Source: Sulfurimonadaceae bacterium
GTDB taxonomy: Bacteria > Campylobacterota > Campylobacteria > Campylobacterales > Sulfurimonadaceae
DNA length: 64,000 bases
Assembly (NCBI GenBank): GCA_041596355.1
Contig: JBFHIS010000005.1
Location: forward strand, 29,430-93,429
Direction of reading: 5' to 3'
Shown: positions 12,856 to 58,310 of the stretch, one piece after another
How the letters are laid out: every line of letters starts with the position of its first letter
How positions within the stretch are numbered: position 1 is the stretch's first letter
Notes under the pieces: model-generated
What the model was told of the DNA's origin: nothing
Databases searched by the model: none
What the model saw: only the letters and a program-made list of their open reading frames with translations
Made by a program: the position numbers and the translations under genes

Positions 12856-12904
12856 ACTTTTTTGTTGATTATTTTAGTTTTCTAGAATTCACTGTTTTTT
12901 AACT

Positions 12905-13330
12905 TTTGAATCTGTTGGACATTTTAATATCCTTGACTACACTCTTTCCTTTTTCACGACCCGGCATTTAGTGCCTCCCTGCATTGCGCTGTTGGCGCTG
13001 ATACTCCGCAAAAAACGAAACCACACAGCACTAAAGTGCCGTACAGGACGGAACTAAATTCCGTATCGTGAAAAGCGCTCGTGACGGCTTTACCCGAGGG
13101 TATTTCCTTTGGTCACAAGTCGACAGCTGTCGACTCCCATCCTTCCAGTCATTCCTTCGCTAAAAACGACTAACTCACCTTCGGCTCAAACAGAGCCGTT
13201 TTATTAACGCTCTTTCACTCCTTACAGTCTGCCTTGCAGATGCCACGAATCATTCAATCGGTAACGCATCTATTGGATTTAAAAGCTTCGCTTTTATTCC
13301 TGTTTGAATTGCTTGGTGGCAGTTGCTCTT
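12905..13330 (+). repeat. intergenic repeat element, copy A (promoter-like head, hairpin arm unit, conserved body blocks)
   Basis: Shares TTGGACATTTnAATATCCTTGACTACACTCTT with copy B. Shares CGGCATTTAGTGCCTCCCTGCATTGCGCTGTTGGCGCTGATAC with copies C and D. Shares the GCGCTCGTGACGGCT, TCGCTAAAAAC, GATGCCACGA, GGTAACGCAT and AAAGCTTCGCTTTTATT..TTTGAATTG blocks with B and D. Sits between convergent genes. Confidence 0.6.
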
Positions 13331-13587
13331 GATGTCGAAAAAGCTTTATGGATTGGAGTTCAGACAGATATTGGCGTCTAACCGCCAATTAGCCCGGAAG
13401 CCGAAATATTCAACTCGCTCCCATGGTCTCCGTGGGAGTGTATATTTCAGTATCGAGTGATTCGCCCATATGTATTCCCACTTACAACGTGGGAACAAGG
13501 AGCTTAAACATAAAAAAAATCAGCCTTCATTAAGCAATATAGCCACGAAGAAAAGAGCCACATAATCTATCAAAATATTGACAAAGG

Positions 13588-17347: not shown

Positions 17348-17387
17348 CATTTGATTGTATTCGTTAAGGATTGGTTTTTCTTTCTTT

Positions 17388-17700
17388 TTTGAACCTGTTG
17401 GACATTTAAATATCCTTGACTACACTCTTACTTTTTTACGCCGCAAAAAAAGTAAGCAAAAAACCTCTCGTGACGGCTGCGCGGTCGGTAGCTACCGACT
17501 GCTTTCACTCCAGTCGTTCATGTCCTAAAAATCCCTAACTCACCTACGGCTCAGACAGAGTGATTTTATTAACGGTCATTCTCTTCTTACGTTCAACGCT
17601 GTAGATGCCACGAAAGAGAGCAAGCGGTAACGCATCTATTTTAAATTTAAAGCTACGCTTTAATCCCTGTTTGAATTGTTTGGCTATAGCTAGTTAATTG
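17388..17700 (+). repeat. intergenic repeat element, copy B (same promoter-like head as A; lacks the 50-bp arm unit)
   Basis: GAACCTGTTGGACATTTAAATATCCTTGACTACACTCTT, then the CTCGTGACGGCT, GGTCGGTAGCTACCGACT hairpin, CTAACTCACCTACGGCTCAGACAGAG..TTTTATTAACG, GATGCCACGA, GGTAACGCATCTATT and AAAGCTACGCTTTAAT..TTTGAATTG blocks. Confidence 0.6.
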
Positions 17701-19461: not shown

Positions 19462-20895
19462 TTAAGGCTGTATGACAGTGTTGGCAATTAACGTAACTGC
19501 CGTTTGTGCCAAGAGTCTGCCGTTGACTGTCGCACCGGTGTTTAACGTAATCGCTTTTTTTGCCAATACTACACCTTTGAAATCCGCTGTTGTTCCAAGA
19601 GAGACACCCGTACCTCCTGCAACTTGCCAGAAGATATTTTTAGCCAATGCGCCGCCGGCGAGAGTTACTATGGCACCATCGTCCACCGTAAGATCTGCGG
19701 CTATCTGGAAGATCCAGACATCGGTTGCGCTACCCGTGATAGTGACACCTGCATTTGTTATTAAAACACCTGCCGGTGCATCCCATTTGTAAAGTCCAGG
19801 AGTAAGAACCTTACCGCTTACATTACCTGCATACAGTTCAACATAATCAGGCAATGTGCGTCCGGCTGCATCATTATATGCAGTTTCCATGTCGAGTACT
19901 GCCGTTGTCATTTTAGCCGGATCTGTATCGGCTGCATAAATTTTGCCTGTTACTAAATCTGATGTTGCATATGTGCCGACAAGAGTCTGACTAAATCCTT
20001 CCAGAACACTTATAGCAGACGGGCTAAGGCCTATATCTCCTGTAATCGCCGTAGTGCCTGTGGTTGTTATTGTCGTTTTAGCAAGGATTACAAAACTTCC
20101 CGCTGTGCCGAGATTGACTGGCGCTAGAACTGGCGCTTCGGTCGTTCCTGTTGTAAAACTCCAAACCTTAACAACTGCTAAAGCATTTCCGGCTAAGTCT
20201 GTAACGCCAGTAGTGATTGTCGCATTGTATTCAGTGTTTATATTAAGGTTTGCAGTAGGATTGAAGATCATCGTGTTGCTTTCATAGCTTACTGTGCCAG
20301 CAACAGGTGTACCACCCATTGTAGTAGTTAATGTAAAAGTAGCTGAGGTGACAGTAGTAGGATCGAGTGTTTCACTGAAGAGGGCACTGACACTTCTGTT
20401 AATCGACACGTTTATATCACTGTTGTCAGGGTCTGTTGACGTCACTGTAGGTGCAGTAAGGTCTGTTGCTGTCCCTGTTGTAAAACTCCAGAAATATTCT
20501 ACTGCCATAGCATTACCGGCTACGTCCTTCACTCCAGTAGTGATTGTCGCATTATATTCAGTGCCGGCACTAAGATTTGCATCAGGATTGAAAAGCATTG
20601 CATTGTTAGCATAGCTCACTGTACCATCAACAGGTGTACTACCGGCTGTAGTAGCTAATGTAAAAGTAGTTGGGTTTACCGTGGAATCATCAAGTGCTTC
20701 ATTAAAGAAGGCAGCGATGCTTGTATTAAGGGTTGCGTTATTGTCACCTTGAACAGGAGCTGTAGATACAACGGTAGGAGCAGTAGAGTCTATAGTGTTA
20801 TTACTGTTATTATCGCTGCATCCTGTTGCAAAAATTGTCAGCATAAAGAGCATGGAGAGTAGCGCTGTATTTGAGTATTGTTTAAATATTTTCAT
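19462..20895 (-). CDS. surface lipoprotein with tandem Ig-like (SbsA/Big-type) repeats and a C-terminal ice-binding-like (DUF3494-type) domain
   Basis: Start moved to the ATG with an AAGGA RBS (MKIFKQY...). Lipobox FATGC. About 2.5 copies of a roughly 102-aa repeat (TAPTVxSTxP...GTVSYxxNxMxFNPxANL...EYNATITTGVxDxAGNAxAV). C-terminal LGTAGSFVILAKTTITTTGTTAITGDIGLSP block typical of DUF3494. Confidence 0.75.
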   Translation of the reverse strand: MKIFKQYSNTALLSMLFMLTIFATGCSDNNSNNTIDSTAPTVVSTAPVQGDNNATLNTSIAAFFNEALDDSTVNPTTFTLATTAGSTPVDGTVSYANNAMLFNPDANLSAGTEYNATITTGVKDVAGNAMAVEYFWSFTTGTATDLTAPTVTSTDPDNSDINVSINRSVSALFSETLDPTTVTSATFTLTTTMGGTPVAGTVSYESNTMIFNPTANLNINTEYNATITTGVTDLAGNALAVVKVWSFTTGTTEAPVLAPVNLGTAGSFVILAKTTITTTGTTAITGDIGLSPSAISVLEGFSQTLVGTYATSDLVTGKIYAADTDPAKMTTAVLDMETAYNDAAGRTLPDYVELYAGNVSGKVLTPGLYKWDAPAGVLITNAGVTITGSATDVWIFQIAADLTVDDGAIVTLAGGALAKNIFWQVAGGTGVSLGTTADFKGVVLAKKAITLNTGATVNGRLLAQTAVTLIANTVIQP

Positions 20896-30845: not shown

Positions 30846-31508
30846 CTAGAAAAAGAGATCGGAGATAAGATTGAGGTAAGGATCCGGACCAAGTTCACTG
30901 TTGGATCTGTTAGATGAATGGGCACTATGATTTTGCTCAGCGCGTTTATAGTTTTTTTGTTGAGTAAGCACTTTCTTGCTGTCTAGTATTTTACGACTTG
31001 GATTATTGTGACCACCGAGTCGAAGCCACTCCTGTATCTGTTTAAACTCTCCAGCATCGAGCCAAATACCGTCTTGACGGCAGACATCCATAATAACGCC
31101 ACTGTGATTCATGTAGTTTTCCCGTTGCATTTTCTCTTTGCAGATAGGGCAGTTCTTGTACTTTACAGTGTCCTTGTGTCTAGGGTGTTGTAAAAGGGAA
31201 TGTACCTTGCTATGGTTAATCCAGTAGGAGTGTTTTACACTCTCTTCTAGCAGACGATCCATCTCATAGTTGTCAAAAAACAGGCCAAAACATTGAGGGC
31301 ATTTGTCAATGATAAAGGCGGCATTTTTTCCAACATCAATACTGTGCAAATTGATATCACAGTTTGGACATTCACGTTCTGAGATACGCAAGGGTGTACT
31401 TTTATTATCGACAACGGCAGGAATATCGATGTCATTGCGCGTTCCGCAATAGTTACAGATAATGCCTGTTTTTGGAAGTGGCGCTGAACAGCTGCTGCAG
31501 CGGGGCAT
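30846..31508 (-). CDS. triple zinc-ribbon protein (zf-TFIIB-like modules)
   Basis: CSSC..CNYC; CPNC..CPQCFGLFFDNYEMDRL; CPICKEK..DVCRQDGIWLDAGEF (C.xC.G.WlD.gE signature). Its start overlaps the stop of the upstream SPFH gene (TAATG). Confidence 0.65.
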   Translation of the reverse strand: MPRCSSCSAPLPKTGIICNYCGTRNDIDIPAVVDNKSTPLRISERECPNCDINLHSIDVGKNAAFIIDKCPQCFGLFFDNYEMDRLLEESVKHSYWINHSKVHSLLQHPRHKDTVKYKNCPICKEKMQRENYMNHSGVIMDVCRQDGIWLDAGEFKQIQEWLRLGGHNNPSRKILDSKKVLTQQKNYKRAEQNHSAHSSNRSNSELGPDPYLNLISDLFF

Positions 31509-32639: not shown

Positions 32640-32711
32640 ATGGGGTAGAGGGATTCGAACCCCCGAATACTGGTACCAAAAACCAGTGCCTTACCGCTTG
32701 GCGATACCCCA
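32640..32711 (-). tRNA. tRNA-Gln (anticodon UUG); CCA apparently not encoded
   Basis: Reverse complement TGGGGTATCGCCAAGCGGTAAGGCACTGGTTTTTGGTACCAG...TTCGAATCCCTCTACCCCA, close to E. coli tRNA-Gln; loop UUUUGGU. Confidence 0.8.
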
Positions 32712-32737
32712 ATATTTATGAAAGTTGTTTTTTATGT

Positions 32738-32814
<77 letters not shown>

Positions 32815-32941
32815 ACATTTAAAATTTTTGCTTTATGCCGTACTCTGCGTTAGTTCTTCCTTCGGATACTGGCGTATACCTCAGTCTCAACTGCCTTGAT
32901 TACAACAAAAATCAATAAATTTTACAACCGTTGATTGTAAA

Positions 32942-33026
32942 TGGTGCGGACGAGAGGACTTGAACCTCCACACCGTGAGGCACCAGATCCTAAGTCTGGC
33001 GTGTCTACCAATTCCACCACGTCCGC
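32942..33026 (-). tRNA. tRNA-Leu (anticodon UAG), copy 1
   Basis: 85 nt with a long variable arm; loop CUUAGGA; CCA encoded. Confidence 0.9.
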
Positions 33027-33070
33027 GTTTTTTGTAATAATAAGTAAAATAAAGTTAACAATCAAATAGA

Positions 33071-33155
33071 TGGTGCGGACGAGAGGACTTGAACCTCCAC
33101 ACCGTAAGGCACCAGATCCTAAGTCTGGCGTGTCTACCAATTCCACCACGTCCGC
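33071..33155 (-). tRNA. tRNA-Leu (anticodon UAG), copy 2 (one nucleotide different from copy 1)
   Basis: Identical to copy 1 except for a G/A change in the variable arm; 44-bp AT-rich spacer. Confidence 0.9.
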
Positions 33156-33344
33156 ATGTGTTTGTTGTTAACAGTATTAATAAAGAACATCTATCATTTT
33201 AATTTCTCTGTTTTCAAAAACAGAAGCTTTAGTGCCATAGCGGCAAGCAGTTGTCTCTATGTTCTTTGCAAAACTTTGCAAAAGCTTTAGTGACTTAGCG
33301 TCTAGCGTAGGAAATGGGCTTTGCTCATTTTCGTTCTAAACAAA

Positions 33345-33421
<77 letters not shown>

Positions 33422-33432
33422 GTATTTTTTAA

Positions 33433-33509
33433 TGGTACGCCCGACAGGGTTCGAACCTGTAACCGGCGGTGCCGAAAACCGCTACTCTATCCAGTTGAGC
33501 CACGGGCGC
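33433..33509 (-). tRNA. tRNA-Arg (anticodon read as UCG; loop UUUCGGC)
   Basis: GCGCCCGTGGCTCAACTGGATAGAGTAGCGGTTTTCGGCACCGC...GGTTCGAACCC...CCA. The anticodon assignment depends on hand-folding. Confidence 0.65.
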
Positions 33510-33553
33510 ACACTGTAAAAAATGTCTTATTTCAAATTTTAATTTCTATCAAA

Positions 33554-33631
33554 TGGGGTGAGATACGGGATTCGAACCCGCGACCCCCGGCACCACAAAC
33601 CAGTGCTCTAACCAACTGAGCTAATCTCACC
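33554..33631 (-). tRNA. tRNA-His (anticodon GUG) with genomically encoded G-1
   Basis: An extra 5' G pairs with C73; loop UUGUGGU; CCA encoded. Confidence 0.88.
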
Positions 33632-33659
33632 ATATGTTTGAAAAAAATAAGAAATAAAG

Positions 33660-33737
33660 TGGTCGGGGCGAAAGGACTCGAACCTTCGACCCCCTGGTCC
33701 CAAACCAGGTACTCTAACCATACTGAGCTACGCCCCG
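33660..33737 (-). tRNA. tRNA-Pro (anticodon UGG)
   Basis: CGGGGCGTAGCTCAGTATGGTTAGAGTACCTGGTTTGGGACCAGG...; C1:G72 typical of tRNA-Pro; CCA encoded. Confidence 0.88.
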
Positions 33738-36724: not shown

Positions 36725-37504
36725 TTAAAATTGTATCATCCCGTCTATCGGAGATGAGGCTGTTGCGTATGGGCGTTTTGGGATACGGCCGGCAAGGTAG
36801 CTCATACGACCGGCACGAATAGCGTGTTTCATTGCCTCAGCCATGATCATCGGATTTTGTGCCTGTGCGATGGCAGTGTTGGTCAGGACGCCGTCTGCAC
36901 CAAGCTCCATGGCATAGACCGCGTCACTGGCACAACCGATACCCGCATCAACAATAATAGGAAGGTTTACCGCTTCGCGGACAAAGACGATATTGTACGG
37001 GTTTTGAACACCGAGACCTGAACCGATAGGTGCGGCAAGCGGCATAATCGCAGCTGCGCCGGCATCTTCCAGACGTTTCGCCATGATCGGATCATCAGAG
37101 GTGTAGGCCATGATCGTAAAGCCCTCTTTAGCGAGAACTTCACAAGCTTTAATAGTCTCTAATACATCAGGATAGAGAGTCTTCTGGGTGTCACCGATCA
37201 CCTCAAGTTTGATGAGATCGATCCCTGTTGCTTCTCGTGTCAGACGAAAGGTCGTAATGGCCTCTTCGGCAGTTACACAGCCTGCAGAGTTCGGAAGGAA
37301 CTTCACGTTTGTGTCAGCAAAAGTGTCACGCAGGTTCTCTTTGTTCGGGTCAGTAATATTAAGACGGCGAACTGCTACGGTGATCAGTTCTGAACCCGAT
37401 GCCAGTGTGGCTGCCTTGGTTGTTTCGAAATCAGCGTATTTGCCGCTTCCAACAATGAGGCGGCTGCCCAGTTCGTATTTGCCGATTTTTAAAATGTTAT
37501 CCAT
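36725..37504 (-). CDS. thiG: thiazole synthase
   Basis: [23 protein letters not shown]... Start moved 12 codons in from the track start, to the ATG with a GGAGAAAAC RBS; TIM-barrel ThiG motifs throughout. Confidence 0.9.
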
Positions 37505-37605
37505 GTTTTCTCCAATTGTTGGGTAGATGTTTGATCGCACATCTCTATAATAGTGTCGCGTTTATAACATAGTGACTCTGTAAACTGACTTACTTTTGCT
37601 AACGC

Positions 37606-38172
37606 TTATTGCTCTTTAAGAATTTTGACAATGGCCTCCGGAAGAAGCTTGTGCTCGAGTCTGCGTATCTTTCGGGTAAAGCTTTCGAGTGTCTCATCGG
37701 CTGTTTTAGAAAAGGCATCTTGGACGATAACCTCGCCTCCGTCGAGTTCGGAACTGACCCAGTGGACACTGACACCGCCGGAAAGCTCACTGCTTTCAAA
37801 ACTCTTTTCTATGGCGTTACCGCCTTTGAAAAGAGGCAGAAGCGAAGGGTGGACATTGATCGCTTTGATGTTGTCTGTGATGACAGGTGTCAAGATGCGC
37901 ATAAAGCCGGCCATAACGACCAGGTCCGGATCATAGTGGCGAATGGTATGCAGGAGCTGGTGGTCAAAACTTTCTCTGTCGCTAAAGTCGGTGTGGTCGA
38001 TGACCTCTACAGGGACATGATGTTCTTTCGCTTTTGCGATCCCGCCGGCATTGGGACGGTTAGTGATCGCGGCAAGGACATCGACCTCTTTGTGATGGAG
38101 TGTTTCGATGATGTTGAGAAGGTTGGACCCTTCTCCGCTAAAAAGGATGACGATTGTTTTACGACTCGGCAT
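37606..38172 (-). CDS. purN: phosphoribosylglycinamide formyltransferase (folate-dependent)
   Basis: IVILFSGEGSNL, NVHPSLLP and other PurN motifs; 188 aa. Its start codon lies inside the first arm unit of repeat locus C. Confidence 0.9.
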   Translation of the reverse strand: MPSRKTIVILFSGEGSNLLNIIETLHHKEVDVLAAITNRPNAGGIAKAKEHHVPVEVIDHTDFSDRESFDHQLLHTIRHYDPDLVVMAGFMRILTPVITDNIKAINVHPSLLPLFKGGNAIEKSFESSELSGGVSVHWVSSELDGGEVIVQDAFSKTADETLESFTRKIRRLEHKLLPEAIVKILKEQ

Positions 38173-38310
38173 TTAGTGCCTCCCATGCATTGAACTGTTG
38201 GTTCCGATACGACTCGGCATTTCACGATCCGTCATTTAGTGACTCCCTGTATTGTGCTGTTGGCACTTAACTGCCTTCCGTGCATTGCGCTGATACGATG
38301 AATCATTTAG
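38160..38310 (+). repeat. repeat locus C: about three degenerate tandem copies of the roughly 45-bp arm unit CGGCATTTAGTGCCTCCCTGCATTGCGCTGTTGGCGCTGATAC
   Basis: acgactCGGCATTTAGTGCCTCCCaTGCATTGaaCTGTTGG.., ..gactCGGCATTTcacgatCC.., GTCATTTAGTGaCTCCCTGtATTGtGCTGTTGGCacT.., ..TGCATTGCGCTGATACgatg. Contiguous units, no unique spacers. Confidence 0.55.
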
Positions 38311-38341
38311 AGTTTTTTCCGTATGGTGGTGTTGACATTGA

Positions 38342-39733
38342 TCATAAAGTGGTCAGGGCCTCGATAAGATCATTGGGTGTCAGTGCGTAGCTGTTTTTTT
38401 CAAACTGGTTGGCGGCTGCGGTGTGGGCGAGAGAGGCATGGGCTGCAGCGTGAATAGTGGTATGGCCTTGTGCCATCAGTGATGCGACGAGACCGGCAAG
38501 GACATCACCGCTGCCGCCTTTGGCCAGTATATTGGTACCGTGAGGATTTATATAGAAGGTCTCACACTGTGCGATAATCACGTTGGCCCCTTTAAGCAGC
38601 AGTGTTGCATTAGGATAGGCACGACAGAAGAGTTCAACATAGTGAAAACGGTTGTTTTGTAATTGCTGGACATCAATATCGGCCAGACCACAGACTCGTA
38701 ATATCGTTGTAAACTCTTTAGGATGTGGCGTGAGCACAAGATGTTTGCGTGTCAGCAGTGAGATAAAAAGCGGATGGGCAAAGATGTCGGCATCAAGCAG
38801 AAGCGGCAGCTCATTGTCCAAGAGTGAGAGAAGCTCTTCATTGGAGAACTCTCTACCCAGTCCCATCCCCAAGGCGATAGCAGTGGTCGTCTCGGGCAGA
38901 AAGTGTGACTGCATCAACTCATAAGGGATCCGTTCGAATTCATTACTGATAAGGGTGACGAGCCCTGCACCAAAACGCAGTGCAGCGGAACCTGTCATGA
39001 CGGCAGCCCCCTGTTTTTCGCCGCAGATAACACTGAGATGGCCATACGTGCCTTTATGGCTGTTCTGCTCATAGCGGTGTGGAAGATGGAGATCGTCCAT
39101 GTCCAGAAGTTTCCAGTTGGAAATGCGTTCATAGACTTTTCTACTGACGCCGAGGTCGATGACATAGATGCTGCCTACGATCTCTTTCGCCGCATCGCTG
39201 AACATACCGCGTTTCATGGCACCCATAGTCAAGGTCACATCTGCGATAAAACTCTCCTCTTCCATCGTGCCGTCAAGACGAAGTCCCGAAGGCATATCGC
39301 AGGCGATCTTGTCGGCATTGAGATCGTTCATCGCCTCCAGAAGCTCGCGGGTCTCTTCATCAAAACTGCGGCTGAAACCGCTGCCAAAAAGGGCATCAAC
39401 AAGGATATCGCACTCTTGAAGTTCATCAACGAACTTGACGCCGACAGCATCTGCACGCTCGTACTGCAACTTTGTCATGGCCGATCGTACGCCGAGAGAG
39501 AGGAAAAGAGAAACATCATAATCGCGATGCAGCATGCGTGCAAGAGCGATTCCGTCAGCACCATTATTGCCGGCGCCGCAGACGATACAGATACGCTCAT
39601 GATCATGATACTGGTTATGGATAAAATCGCTCATTCCGTCGGCGGCATGTTCCATCAAGATATCTTCGCTGAGACCGAAGTCGTCATAACAGCGTTGATC
39701 GAGGGAACGGACCTCTGTGAAAAGATTCTGCAT
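38342..39733 (-). CDS. nnr: bifunctional NAD(P)H-hydrate repair enzyme (epimerase/ADP-dependent dehydratase; YjeF N+C domains)
   Basis: 463 aa; N-terminal YjeF-N (ICIVCGAGNNGADG) and C-terminal carbohydrate-kinase-like domain (GGSGDVLAG). Confidence 0.88.
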   Translation of the reverse strand: MQNLFTEVRSLDQRCYDDFGLSEDILMEHAADGMSDFIHNQYHDHERICIVCGAGNNGADGIALARMLHRDYDVSLFLSLGVRSAMTKLQYERADAVGVKFVDELQECDILVDALFGSGFSRSFDEETRELLEAMNDLNADKIACDMPSGLRLDGTMEEESFIADVTLTMGAMKRGMFSDAAKEIVGSIYVIDLGVSRKVYERISNWKLLDMDDLHLPHRYEQNSHKGTYGHLSVICGEKQGAAVMTGSAALRFGAGLVTLISNEFERIPYELMQSHFLPETTTAIALGMGLGREFSNEELLSLLDNELPLLLDADIFAHPLFISLLTRKHLVLTPHPKEFTTILRVCGLADIDVQQLQNNRFHYVELFCRAYPNATLLLKGANVIIAQCETFYINPHGTNILAKGGSGDVLAGLVASLMAQGHTTIHAAAHASLAHTAAANQFEKNSYALTPNDLIEALTTL

Positions 39734-39882
39734 GCGTGTTCCTGCTTATTAATTGCATTATTATAGCCAATGTGAGTGAATAGGGGTGAGTTGAGTTATA
39801 ATACGGTTTATCATAAGAACCAAAGGTTCAATGCATGGGTGGTACGATAGTGCCAACAGCACAATAGAGGAAATAGTTTATA

Positions 39883-40857
39883 ATGAGTCGTAAAAACGAT
39901 TACAGAGCAATTGTCAAAGAGACATTGGAAATCGAAGCTAACACGCTTTTGCAAGCTGCTGAAAAGATCTCTGAAGATCTCGATAAGATCGTAGAGACGA
40001 TTCTGCAATGCAAGGGTAAGTTGATCGTTACCGGTGTCGGTAAGTCCGGGCTGATCGGTGCGAAAATGGCGGCGACTTTTGCCTCGACCGGGACACCCAG
40101 TTTTTTCCTGCACCCAACCGAAGCGATGCATGGTGACTTGGGAATGATCTCAAAAGAGGATGTTGTACTGGCCATCAGTTACAGCGGAGAGAGTGAAGAG
40201 CTCAGCTCGATTTTGCCGCATGTAAAACGGTTTGATATCCCGTTGATCGGTATGACAAAAAACAGCACCTCTACATTGGGTGATTTCAGTGACCTGCTGG
40301 TGACAATCGATGTGAAGAAAGAGGCGTGTCCGCTCGACATCGCACCGACCTCTTCAACAACGCTGACATTGGCTCTCGGAGATGCTTTGGCGGTCTGTCT
40401 GATGAAGGCCCGTGACTTTAAAAAAGAGGATTTCGCCTCGTTCCATCCGGGTGGTTCGTTAGGTCGTCAGCTTTTTGTAAAAGTCAAAGATGTCATGCGG
40501 AAAGAGTCCTTGCCGGTCATCAACATGAAGACGCCGCTTAAAGAAGCGATCGTGAGCATCAGTGAAGGACGTATCGGTACGGTCCTTCTGGTTGATGACA
40601 ATAACAAGTTTACAGGTCTCATCAGTGATGGTGACATTCGCCGTGCGTTGCTGAACAAAGCATTCTCTCTCGAAGAGCCGGCTTCGACGTATGCGACCTT
40701 AAATCCAAAGACAATCGACGACGCAAGCATGCTTGCAAGCGACGCGTTGGTATTGATTGAAAAATATAAGATCCAGCTCCTGGTAGTGGTTGACAAAGAG
40801 AAAAACCTTCTCGGTGCTCTACATCTCCATGATCTGGTTGAAAAGGGAATCGCATGA
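39883..40857 (+). CDS. KpsF/GutQ family sugar-phosphate (arabinose-5-phosphate) isomerase with SIS and tandem CBS domains
   Basis: GKLIVTGVGKSGLIGAKMAATFASTG SIS motif; CBS pair at the C-terminus; 324 aa. Confidence 0.88.
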   Translation: MSRKNDYRAIVKETLEIEANTLLQAAEKISEDLDKIVETILQCKGKLIVTGVGKSGLIGAKMAATFASTGTPSFFLHPTEAMHGDLGMISKEDVVLAISYSGESEELSSILPHVKRFDIPLIGMTKNSTSTLGDFSDLLVTIDVKKEACPLDIAPTSSTTLTLALGDALAVCLMKARDFKKEDFASFHPGGSLGRQLFVKVKDVMRKESLPVINMKTPLKEAIVSISEGRIGTVLLVDDNNKFTGLISDGDIRRALLNKAFSLEEPASTYATLNPKTIDDASMLASDALVLIEKYKIQLLVVVDKEKNLLGALHLHDLVEKGIA

Positions 40858-57734: not shown

Positions 57735-57849
57735 TCTGCGACAGGCTTTTTGGTTTTGCACTTGAAATAATTGTATACCCTTTAATTCTTTATTGGCTTC
57801 TCTTTATTTTTTAGTACAGGCGTATCGTTGAAAAGTACAACTTTCGTCT

Positions 57850-58310
57850 CATACACTCTTTCTTTTTTCACGACTCGGCATTTAGTGCCTCCCTGCATTG
57901 CGCTGTTGGCGCTGATACGCCGCAAAAAAATAAAACAAAAAAAGCGCTCGTGACGGCTTCGCAGTCGGTGGCTACCGACTGCTTTCCTTACAGTCGTTCT
58001 TTCGCTAAAAACTGCCGCACCGATGCTTCGCATAACGGTTTATCCAAAAAAACGTGCCTTACAGCACCTTTCTTTTGGCATATCGTCGGCTAAAAAACGC
58101 AAAGAAATTCGCCTTTTTCTTAAGGCCTTTGGCACTCCATACGCTCAACGCTGTAGATGCCACGACACAGGGCTAAAGCCCCGTACAGGGAGGCACTAAA
58201 TGCCGAGTCGTGAAAGAGCTAAGCGGTGACGCATTGATTTGAATGTAAAAGCTTTCGCTTTTGATTTAGTTTGAACTTTGTCGATGTAGAACTGCGTGTT
58301 GGTACAGCTA
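57850..58310 (+). repeat. intergenic repeat element, copy D (perfect 30-bp inverted repeat at 57866-57895 and 58186-58215 flanking 290 bp of conserved body blocks)
   Basis: TTTCACGACTCGGCATTTAGTGCCTCCCTG ... CAGGGAGGCACTAAATGCCGAGTCGTGAAA. The interior carries the GCGCTCGTGACGGCT, AGTCGGTGGCTACCGACT, TCGCTAAAAAC and GATGCCACGA blocks; the tail carries GGTGACGCAT, AAAGCTTTCGCTTTTGATT and TTTGAACTT. Confidence 0.6.

Follow-up and report, generated by a model that had tools for sequence, protein, structure and literature searches.

The REP2 repeats of Neisseria, of 120-150 bp, contain two stem-loops together with a promoter, a ribosome-binding site (RBS) and an ATG that is fused to open reading frames (ORFs) (Delihas, 2011; PMC3184786). 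The interspersed repetitive units of mycobacteria (MIRUs) are short, often stand in tandem between the genes of an operon, and are thought to be mobile and to insert at start codons such that the gene downstream is still expressed (Supply et al., 1997, via PMC12548453). REP and REPIN sequences are recognized by a palindrome of 20-40 bp that bears GTAG or CGTC as an unpaired tag on one of its ends (PMC3733652). Here we describe a repeat unit of 46-48 nt in a 64,000-nt stretch of contig JBFHIS010000005.1 from the metagenome-assembled genome of a Sulfurimonadaceae bacterium (GCA_041596355.1), hereafter the window, where copies of it lie between the genes nnr and purN. With a probability of about 0.85, the unit is a mobile, non-autonomous repeat equipped with a full translation initiation region, and its copies form both the nnr-purN spacer and the first four codons of purN.

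The 182 nt at 38161-38342 (minus strand) are made up of repeat DNA. Two of the units in them are complete, a third is old and degenerate, and a fourth is split by a nested copy; in the sense of purN the order is A (48 nt), the 5' part of B (24 nt), C (47 nt), the 3' tail of B (15 nt) and E (48 nt) (Table 1). The 21-mer core GGCACTAAATGCCGAGTCGTG has four matches in the window at up to three mismatches, against 0.00 expected, and an nhmmer profile built from 84 distinct copies matches unit E at E = 1.4e-14; the repeat at the purN start is real and far beyond chance. A sequence-only reading of the window had described about three degenerate head-to-tail copies of a 45-bp unit, filling the intergenic gap as far as 38310, and had recognized ACGACTCGGCAT at 38161-38172 as the reverse complement of the purN start ATGCCGAGTCGT. 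The reverse complement and the filled gap are correct, and the copy number holds in substance. The unit, however, measures 46-48 nt, the block extends to the nnr stop at 38342, and one copy is nested, so the array is not a simple tandem. Tandem Repeats Finder (minimum score 30) did not report the array, because the copies are too divergent or interrupted.

The copies have decayed to different degrees. Unit A is about 56% like the consensus, with the CCAACA loop and the CTAAATG..TCGT tail still visible, and its ortholog in the relative L118 is better preserved (..AATACAGAGAGGCACAAAATGCCGAGTCGT). Unit B reads ATCAGCGC, a 9-nt deletion and AATGCACGGAAGGCAG, with the tail GAAATGCCGAGTCGT beyond unit C; the deletion hits hairpin 1, and unit C interrupts the loop of hairpin 2. 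L118 keeps the undeleted form ATCAGCGCCAACAGCGCAATGCATGGGAGGCACT. Unit C has its own Shine-Dalgarno (SD) sequence (AGGGAG) and an ATG at 38235-38233, which opens a 20-codon upstream ORF (uORF), in frame, ending at the TAA 38175-38173, abutting the purN ATG (38172). The nested C-in-B architecture is also present in the related loci L118, L071, L123 and L124, and in the last two the B-type tail comes after the nested unit and adjoins purN. Unit E comprises hairpin 1 at 38204-38192, the SD sequence GGGAGG at 38184-38179 and hairpin 2 at 38180-38168. The purN ATG (38172-38170) lies within it and is followed by CCG AGT CGT. Codons 1-4 of purN (MPSR) are thus repeat-derived, and the native sequence restarts at the AAA 38160-38158.

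Three relatives, L120 (GCA_024277445.1), L121 and L122, whose PurN is 81-82% identical, carry no unit. In these the nnr stop overlaps the purN start (ATGA) with no spacer (..CTATGAAAAAAATCGTCATCC..), and PurN begins with MKK or MKN before IVILFSG, e.g. MKKIVILFSG. With a slash marking each junction, the empty site reads CTATG/AAAAAAATCGTC and the window reads TTATG/182 nt/AAAACAATCGTC, or in its longer form ..TTATG/182 nt/AAAACAATCGTCATCC.., indicating that the block was inserted exactly between the ancestral ATG and codon 2 (AAA). In the window the nnr stop TGA (38342-38344) still overlaps the ancestral ATG, which today is the start of no more than a 12-codon uORF (MINVNTTIRKKL). The ancestral ATGA coupling of purN to nnr is broken. 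The closest relatives, L118 and L119 (90% identical), contain A'-B'-C', and their purN starts from unit C' (MTNRKK); the window has an extra 63 nt (the B tail and E) and starts from E. In L123 and L124, a single unit with a second one nested in its hairpin-2 loop occupies the ATG^AAA site (GGCACT/unit ending in CGT/GAAATGCC), confirming that B and C are correctly read as nested. That A is the most degenerate copy and E lies near the consensus fits repeated entry of units at the CGT^AAA junction proximal to the gene.

The N termini of 120 PurN homologues show the same division; names given to homologues of PurN include Sulfurimonadaceae, Thiovulaceae, Sulfuricurvum and similar. Distant homologues start with MKK, MKR or MKN followed by IV(I/A)LFSG, and close ones with MPSRK, MTNRK, MTPRK, MISRK, MMSREMPSRKK and the like. 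The earlier reading had proposed that a repeat insertion might have created or rebuilt the purN 5' end, and this is borne out: neither MPSRK nor the array is ancestral, and the relatives without the repeat have a different 5' end and different upstream sequence. In six PurN records (P0005, P0006, P0026, P0027, P0032 and P0078), automatic calls extend the protein through upstream unit tails (MMSREMPSRKK.., MKIDTNNSMHGSRKMPSRK..). Composite units contain two in-frame ATGs, so the true PurN start is ambiguous there and the annotation is inconsistent.

A similar history is seen on the other side of nnr, where two old degenerate units reach into the divergent gene kdsD. The kdsD start ATGAGTCGT/AAAAACGATTAC, with AAAAAC after the junction, is a decayed unit tail, and the protein begins MSRKN... 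The native kdsD start has apparently decayed to ATC, and the unit-derived ATG persists. In L120 the kdsD region has no units (ATGAACTATGATTAC), and in L118 an additional 158-nt B-C-B'-E block is present at the same CGT^AAA junction. As a result, nnr has a unit array on either side, the two being inverted relative to each other, and whole blocks of units sit at different places in two close genomes, the window and L118.

Table 1. Coordinates of the repeat units and associated features (window positions unless a locus is named).
Feature	Coordinates	Strand	Basis or remark
purN, phosphoribosylglycinamide formyltransferase	37606-38172	-	188 aa, PF00551 (Formyl_trans_N)
Unit E, 48 nt, youngest, near consensus	38161-38208	-	nhmmer 38161-38207, E = 1.4e-14
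Unit B, 3' tail	38209-38223	-	nhmmer fragment 38209-38222, E = 0.023
Unit C, 47 nt, nested in unit B hairpin-2 loop	38224-38270	-	nhmmer 38224-38270, E = 1.6e-9
Unit B, 5' part	38271-38294	-	nhmmer fragment 38272-38294, E = 0.33
Unit A, 48 nt, oldest copy, degenerate, adjoins nnr	38295-38342	-	sequence reading and L118 ortholog
Ancestral purN start codon ATG	38343-38345	-	empty-site relatives L120, L121 and L122, reading ..CTATGAAAAAAATCGTC..
nnr, YjeF_N and carbohydrate kinase (Carb_kinase)	38342-39733	-	ORF and domain matches
Two old degenerate units upstream of and into kdsD	39813-39891	+	profile fragment 39813-39845; comparison with L120 and L118
kdsD (SIS-CBS, arabinose-5-phosphate isomerase type)	39883-40857	+	
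Backbone loci, three ORF-free paralogues	12871-13333; 17354-17700; 57800-58275	+	
Two units, clean indels in non-coding backbone locus	12956-13002; 13023-13069	-; +	profile
Two units in paralogous backbone locus	57870-57916; 58165-58211	-; +	profile
Subfamily without start codon	13023-13069; L036 860-905; L050 964-1006; L117 4325-4369	+ (window copy)	

The unit is not confined to this genome. A sample of the family was gathered with the exact 20-mer GGCACTAAATGCCGRGTCGT in a species-representative genome collection, where it occurs at at least 116 loci; the matches listed, 122 copies in all, come from 74 assemblies (counted by accession prefix), and the counts below refer to them. Carriers are named Sulfurimonas, Sulfurovum, Sulfuricurvum, Arcobacteraceae, 'Helicobacteraceae' and Campylobacterota, in addition to two probably mis-binned contigs, and the 20-mer was absent from viral contigs. 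Metagenome-assembled genomes form the majority of the carriers, and this, together with the absent call by Tandem Repeats Finder, could point to chance similarity or an assembly artefact. That explanation is negligible in view of the 0.00 chance matches expected, the profile E-value of about 1e-14, and the presence of copies, in frame with genes, in one complete chromosome, that of Sulfurovum sp. CS9 (NZ_CP180410.1), as well as in single-cell genomes and numerous independent assemblies. No description of the unit was found in the literature on repeats and miniature inverted-repeat transposable elements (MITEs) of Sulfurimonas, Campylobacterota and Epsilonproteobacteria, or in a literature search with the sequence itself. 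A search of the window against Rfam 15 at the gathering score returned only tRNAs, and at E<=10 the region 38100-38400 gave nothing meaningful.

The unit ATG opens an ORF of at least 80 aa in 69 of the 122 copies. These copies head 55 distinct proteins matching 74 Pfam families, including PurA, HemE, PurN, endonuclease IV, sugar epimerases, PdxA, RpiB and YmdB. In the PurA example (AGGAAATATATA), the arrangement ATG/unit/AAA GCA GAT turns MKADLIVG into MPSRKADLIVG. Of 120 PurA orthologues with 89% identity or more, about 80 start with MKADLIVG and 7 with MPSRKADLIVG, and the other starts are decayed forms (MPSSK, MPSHK, MASRK, MSRK). Such a mixture among close orthologues indicates that the insertion is young and polymorphic. 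These results bear on the second option of the sequence-only reading, that the repeat family came from the purN start, or from the native 5' end of another gene, and that the purN copy is the source. The unit does hold an ordinary SD sequence, ATG and codons, the same question of origin was raised by Delihas for Neisseria REP2, and a distant descent from the 5' end of some gene or transposase could still be imagined. For purN itself the idea is already refuted by the relatives with a unit-less purN and an ATGA overlap. Moreover, the insertion is polymorphic among close relatives at both purN and purA, and the same unit heads dozens of other proteins and occupies non-coding sites across several families. 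We therefore regard an origin from a gene start as very improbable.

The unit consensus, ATAAGAACTAAAGTTCAATGCAGGGAGGCACTAAATGCCGAGTCGT, consists in order of ATAA, hairpin 1 (G-NNN, a loop of TAAA or CAACA, and NNN-C), AATGCAGGGA, hairpin 2 (GGCA-CTAAA-TGCC) and GAGTCGT, and the loop and linker set its length at 46, 47 or 48 nt. A GGAGG SD core lies 6 nt 5' of the unit ATG, which sits within hairpin 2, and a conserved ACAGGGA lies between the two hairpins. The ATG is followed by CCG AGT CGT, and the end of the unit thus falls exactly on a codon boundary. The hairpins begin 4 nt from the 5' end and finish 7 nt from the 3' end. The ends themselves (ATAAG.. and ..GAGTCGT) are not inverted repeats of each other, so terminal inverted repeats are absent.

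Pairing in the hairpins was examined in gap-free alignments of 35 TAAA-loop and 16 CAACA-loop units, all distinct. Standard pairs occupied 98.6% of the cells in the former and 100% in the latter, and sliding the partner by 1-3 columns lowered pairing to 9-37%. Both-side compensatory changes were found at 3 of the 4 pairs of hairpin 1 (e.g. AU, UA, CG and GC at one position) and at 1 of the 4 pairs of hairpin 2, and the observed covariation score was matched by none of 500 shuffles. Hairpin 1 is maintained by compensatory changes. Its 35 distinct versions contain 97 Watson-Crick, 4 G-T and no A-C internal pairs, which is weak evidence that the sense strand may be the one that folds. Hairpin 2 is almost invariant, and its few variants are compensatory (GTCA with TGAC, GGAA with TTCC); the invariance is due in part to the sample having been collected with hairpin 2's own sequence. 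A single unit folds at about -8 kcal/mol (z of 0 to -1 against shuffles), and the whole purN-nnr spacer folds less stably than its shuffles (z = +1.4).

These features invite the view that the unit is mainly a cis-regulatory RNA module, such as a protein- or ligand-binding leader, an RNA thermometer or a CsrA-type GGA site, with mobility being secondary. The compensatory changes in hairpin 1, the G-T pairs without A-C pairs on the sense strand, the position of the start codon in hairpin 2 and the conserved ACAGGGA would suit such a role, and in Neisseria REP2 marks a co-regulated set of genes. However, the carrier genes share no common pathway, near-identical orthologues differ in whether they carry the unit, the weak hairpins do not exceed shuffles in stability, and Rfam gave no match. 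In addition, a subfamily at non-coding sites lacks both signals: AAATTCC replaces AAATGCC, so that the start codon is lost, the SD sequence is absent, and hairpin 2 is lengthened to 6 bp (ACGGAA with TTCCGT, GCGAAA with TTTCGC). The initiation region is accordingly not universal to the repeat family, and a primarily regulatory role is improbable.

The module of hairpin 2 plus GAGTCGT was also observed inside at least two longer multi-copy intergenic repeat types, which suggests a modular superfamily. The first type reads ..GTGAGCC..CTGACAAGCA-CTAAA-TGCAGTGCAAGCGA(module)AAG..CAGCGTTAGCG and the second ..CTCTCTGACGCGACAGAGAGATCAGCACC..(module)AAAAAGTT.AG.CCGCCAC. Longer types occur in two groups of loci, one from Sulfurovum and others (L002, L008, L014, L015, L020, L022, L026, L038, L044, L057, L061, L067, L082, L083, L094, L116) and a second group (L006, L009, L017, L028, L065, L076, L085).

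Our functional statements are all inferred from sequence. At purN, translation would start from the SD sequence and ATG of unit E, giving MPSR fused to KTIVILFSG. Ribosomes loading at unit C would translate the 20-codon uORF and stop at the UAA directly before the purN AUG, and termination-reinitiation may add to purN initiation. The additional three residues lie ahead of the first beta-strand (IVILFSG) and are expected to do no harm. The sequence-only reading had expected the array to affect purN translation through hairpins at the start codon. This appears to be true in a stronger sense, with the proximal unit supplying the RBS and start of the gene, but strong structure-based repression was rejected, as the hairpins are weak. 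A scan of 37500-40000 revealed no promoter- or terminator-like site in the spacer; no sigma-70-like site was found in that region, a weak test since promoters of Campylobacterota differ from the scanned consensus.

The native start has often been left in place upstream of the unit. It abuts the unit 5' end in 36 of the 69 gene-start copies. In a further 21 it lies 3, 6, 9 or 12 nt upstream, as a rule together with an SD sequence of its own, so that a native start stands in frame within 12 nt in 57 of 69. It could be argued that this start is still used and that the unit is passed by termination-reinitiation or ribosome hopping, its own SD sequence being irrelevant. The stop codons of the old frame lend this some weight. 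In 46-nt units the frame ends at a TAA, TAG or TGA made by the last T of the unit and the next two purines (CGT/RR), 9 nt after the unit ATG, and in the 48-nt form it ends at a TAA 0 nt before that ATG. Units of 47 nt have no such stop, and they account for 7 of the 69 copies at gene starts against 26 of the 53 elsewhere; 46-nt units make up 54 of the 69. This skew, in a comparison confounded by subfamily relatedness, hints that translation from the old start may still occur and be under selection. Nevertheless, a GGAGG core at 6 nt from the ATG is both conserved and close to optimal, the old kdsD start has been lost while the unit-derived ATG persists, and at purN the uORF of the old ATG ends 134 nt before the purN ATG. 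We give little credence to the native start as the one in use.

The junctions indicate how the unit may have moved. Tandem copies are joined exactly at GAGTCGT/ATAAG, nested copies sit at CT^AAA in the hairpin-2 loop, and empty and filled sites differ with at most 1 nt of ambiguity and without target-site duplication. The 3' flank is AAA in 46 of the 69 gene-start copies and 25 of the 53 others (71 of 122 overall); the remaining 3' flanks are mostly purine-rich, and the 5' flank is variable. A TA target duplication of the mariner or Correia-like kind was rejected, as it would put the native genes out of frame. A classical MITE was also rejected, since both terminal inverted repeats and target-site duplication are lacking. 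The comparisons show that units entered repeatedly, and partly nested, exactly between the ancestral purN ATG and AAA, and that each new copy entered at the gene-proximal CGT^AAA junction and pushed the older copies upstream to decay. The unit would persist at gene 5' ends because it replaces the start that it disrupts, and elsewhere in genes its insertion would be lethal.

The lack of terminal inverted repeats and target duplication, combined with structure-conserved subterminal hairpins, gives the unit an incomplete resemblance to single-strand elements of the HUH type (IS200/IS605 derivatives, REP/RAYT). The unit might move as single-stranded DNA by means of a hairpin-recognizing HUH-type enzyme (IS200/IS605 TnpA- or RAYT-like) acting in trans, which would insert it 5' of AAA, or 3' of TTT on the other strand. 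We offer this route tentatively and consider it doubtful. That the unit is a dedicated 'portable start site', actively homing to junctions of a start codon and AAA by a new mechanism, with a trans-encoded agent as one candidate, possibly involving the backbone RNA loci of about 300 nt described below, seems unlikely, although it would mean that housekeeping translation has been rewired across Campylobacterota, e.g. by uncoupling purN from nnr. The present sample gave no support to a further candidate, in which the unit would be the 5' and 3' ends, fused together, of a transposase gene with the start MPSR...

Several points weigh against the conclusion that the unit is a mobile repeat providing gene starts. 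About 1 Mb of DNA flanking the 122 copies yielded neither a transposase nor a RAYT: a scan for Y1-transposase motifs gave no hits, and the families obtained by all-against-all clustering of 1018 ORFs around the copies were all housekeeping or syntenic ones. Among the 25 Pfam families listed for the 55 unit-headed proteins there was no transposase. The 5' flank is not a fixed tetranucleotide, unlike the requirement of IS200/IS605, and stems of only 4 bp fall below known TnpA or RAYT substrates. Gene conversion among neighbouring arrays, rather than transposition, could account for the blocks by which the window and L118 differ. Sampling with an exact 20-mer overstates the conservation of hairpin 2. 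Finally, the use of the unit ATG is argued from reading frames and from the essentiality of genes such as purA, hemE and adk.

Elsewhere in the window, the profile brought the number of full units to six, the other four lying in backbone loci (Table 1). These loci are three ORF-free paralogues of a conserved family, about 300-450 nt long, with 29 matches in the window and the fetched loci and several copies per genome. Between them, three clean indels of about 48 nt correspond to units, without target duplication, and each of these units lies directly 5' of AAA(A/G); in the paralogue 17354-17700 both unit sites are empty. RNAalifold on 14 backbone copies predicted 30 pairs, of which 14 had compensatory changes, with many G-U pairs on the plus strand and a long-range helix CTCGTGACGGC...GATGCCACGA. 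No Rfam match to the backbone locus was obtained at E<=1. The family probably represents a structured RNA not described before, or else a non-autonomous element of larger size.

The segment 30986-31016, within the ORF 30846-31508 (minus strand) of a zinc-ribbon-type protein (..GGHNNPSRKIL..), is 68% similar to the 3' half of the unit; it was rejected as a copy, as the profile gives no match, and is probably a chance resemblance, though it could be what is left of an old in-frame copy. At 20144-20770, a sequence of about 300 nt is present in two direct copies (327 nt apart, 73% identity), likely an intragenic duplication. Eight tRNA genes are clustered at 32640-33737 (minus strand), with two near-identical 82-nt copies (32945-33026 and 33074-33155). 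The minus-strand neighbours at the main locus are nnr, purN and thiG.

If correctly read, the unit is a tiny selfish repeat that, across a phylum-level group of bacteria, has found a safe niche inside genes, behind the start codon, by bringing a replacement RBS and start. It would be the single common cause of the many MPSRK... N termini, of spurious extensions such as MMSREMPSRKK and of 'intergenic' arrays, and is relevant to start prediction in Sulfurimonas, Sulfurovum and their relatives. At nnr-purN it has broken an ancestral translational coupling, and native signals would have been exchanged for one uniform strong signal, so the expression of dozens of housekeeping genes could be equalised or changed. 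With its clear filled and empty sites and recent activity, the family may serve as a natural model for questions raised by MIRUs and REP2, namely how such repeats move and how they avoid harming the host. The 47-nt self-contained initiation cassette may also be of use for expression work in Campylobacterota.

Compared with described systems, the unit shares its smallness, structure, non-autonomy and nested or clustered copies with REP/REPIN sequences and IS200/IS605-derived elements, and, as in the latter, its hairpins are subterminal and neither terminal inverted repeats nor target-site duplication is present. Inverted pairs like those of REPINs also occur (12956/13023 and 57870/58165). However, GTAG and CGTC are absent from both strands of the unit consensus, and the unit differs from REP/REPIN in having 4-bp stems, in lying at gene starts rather than downstream of genes, and in its conserved flank on the 3' side (AAA). 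Like the Rickettsia palindromic elements, it is a mobile repeat tolerated in protein-coding genes with the reading frame preserved. Those elements are translated throughout as an internal peptide, whereas only the last 12 nt of the unit would be translated, after a restart.

The closest functional parallels appear to be Neisseria REP2 and the mycobacterial MIRUs, and the principle would be common to all three. REP2, similar inverted-repeat sequences of Borrelia and the unit are dispersed, lack terminal inverted repeats, and carry two stem-loops and an RBS and ATG fused to the downstream ORF. REP2 also has a promoter, a 5' untranslated region, an upstream position and a contact-induced regulon in one genus. 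The unit, by contrast, is only 46-48 nt long, has no detected promoter, is inserted between codons 1 and 2 with the native SD sequence and ATG left upstream, and is found at unrelated housekeeping genes in several Campylobacterota families, so that by description it is set apart from REP2. Similar to MIRUs, it forms a tandem array between the co-oriented nnr and purN and was inserted after the ancestral ATG, as at the many other copies that abut a native start. In MIRUs an internal ORF is coupled to the gene by a -4 overlap, whereas the unit supplies the gene's own ATG and SD sequence, alters the N terminus by adding PSR, contains covarying hairpins and belongs to a different phylum. What is new relative to both REP2 and MIRUs is thus a smaller element of another phylum, with covarying hairpins, that brings its own start codon and leaves the native SD-ATG stranded upstream.

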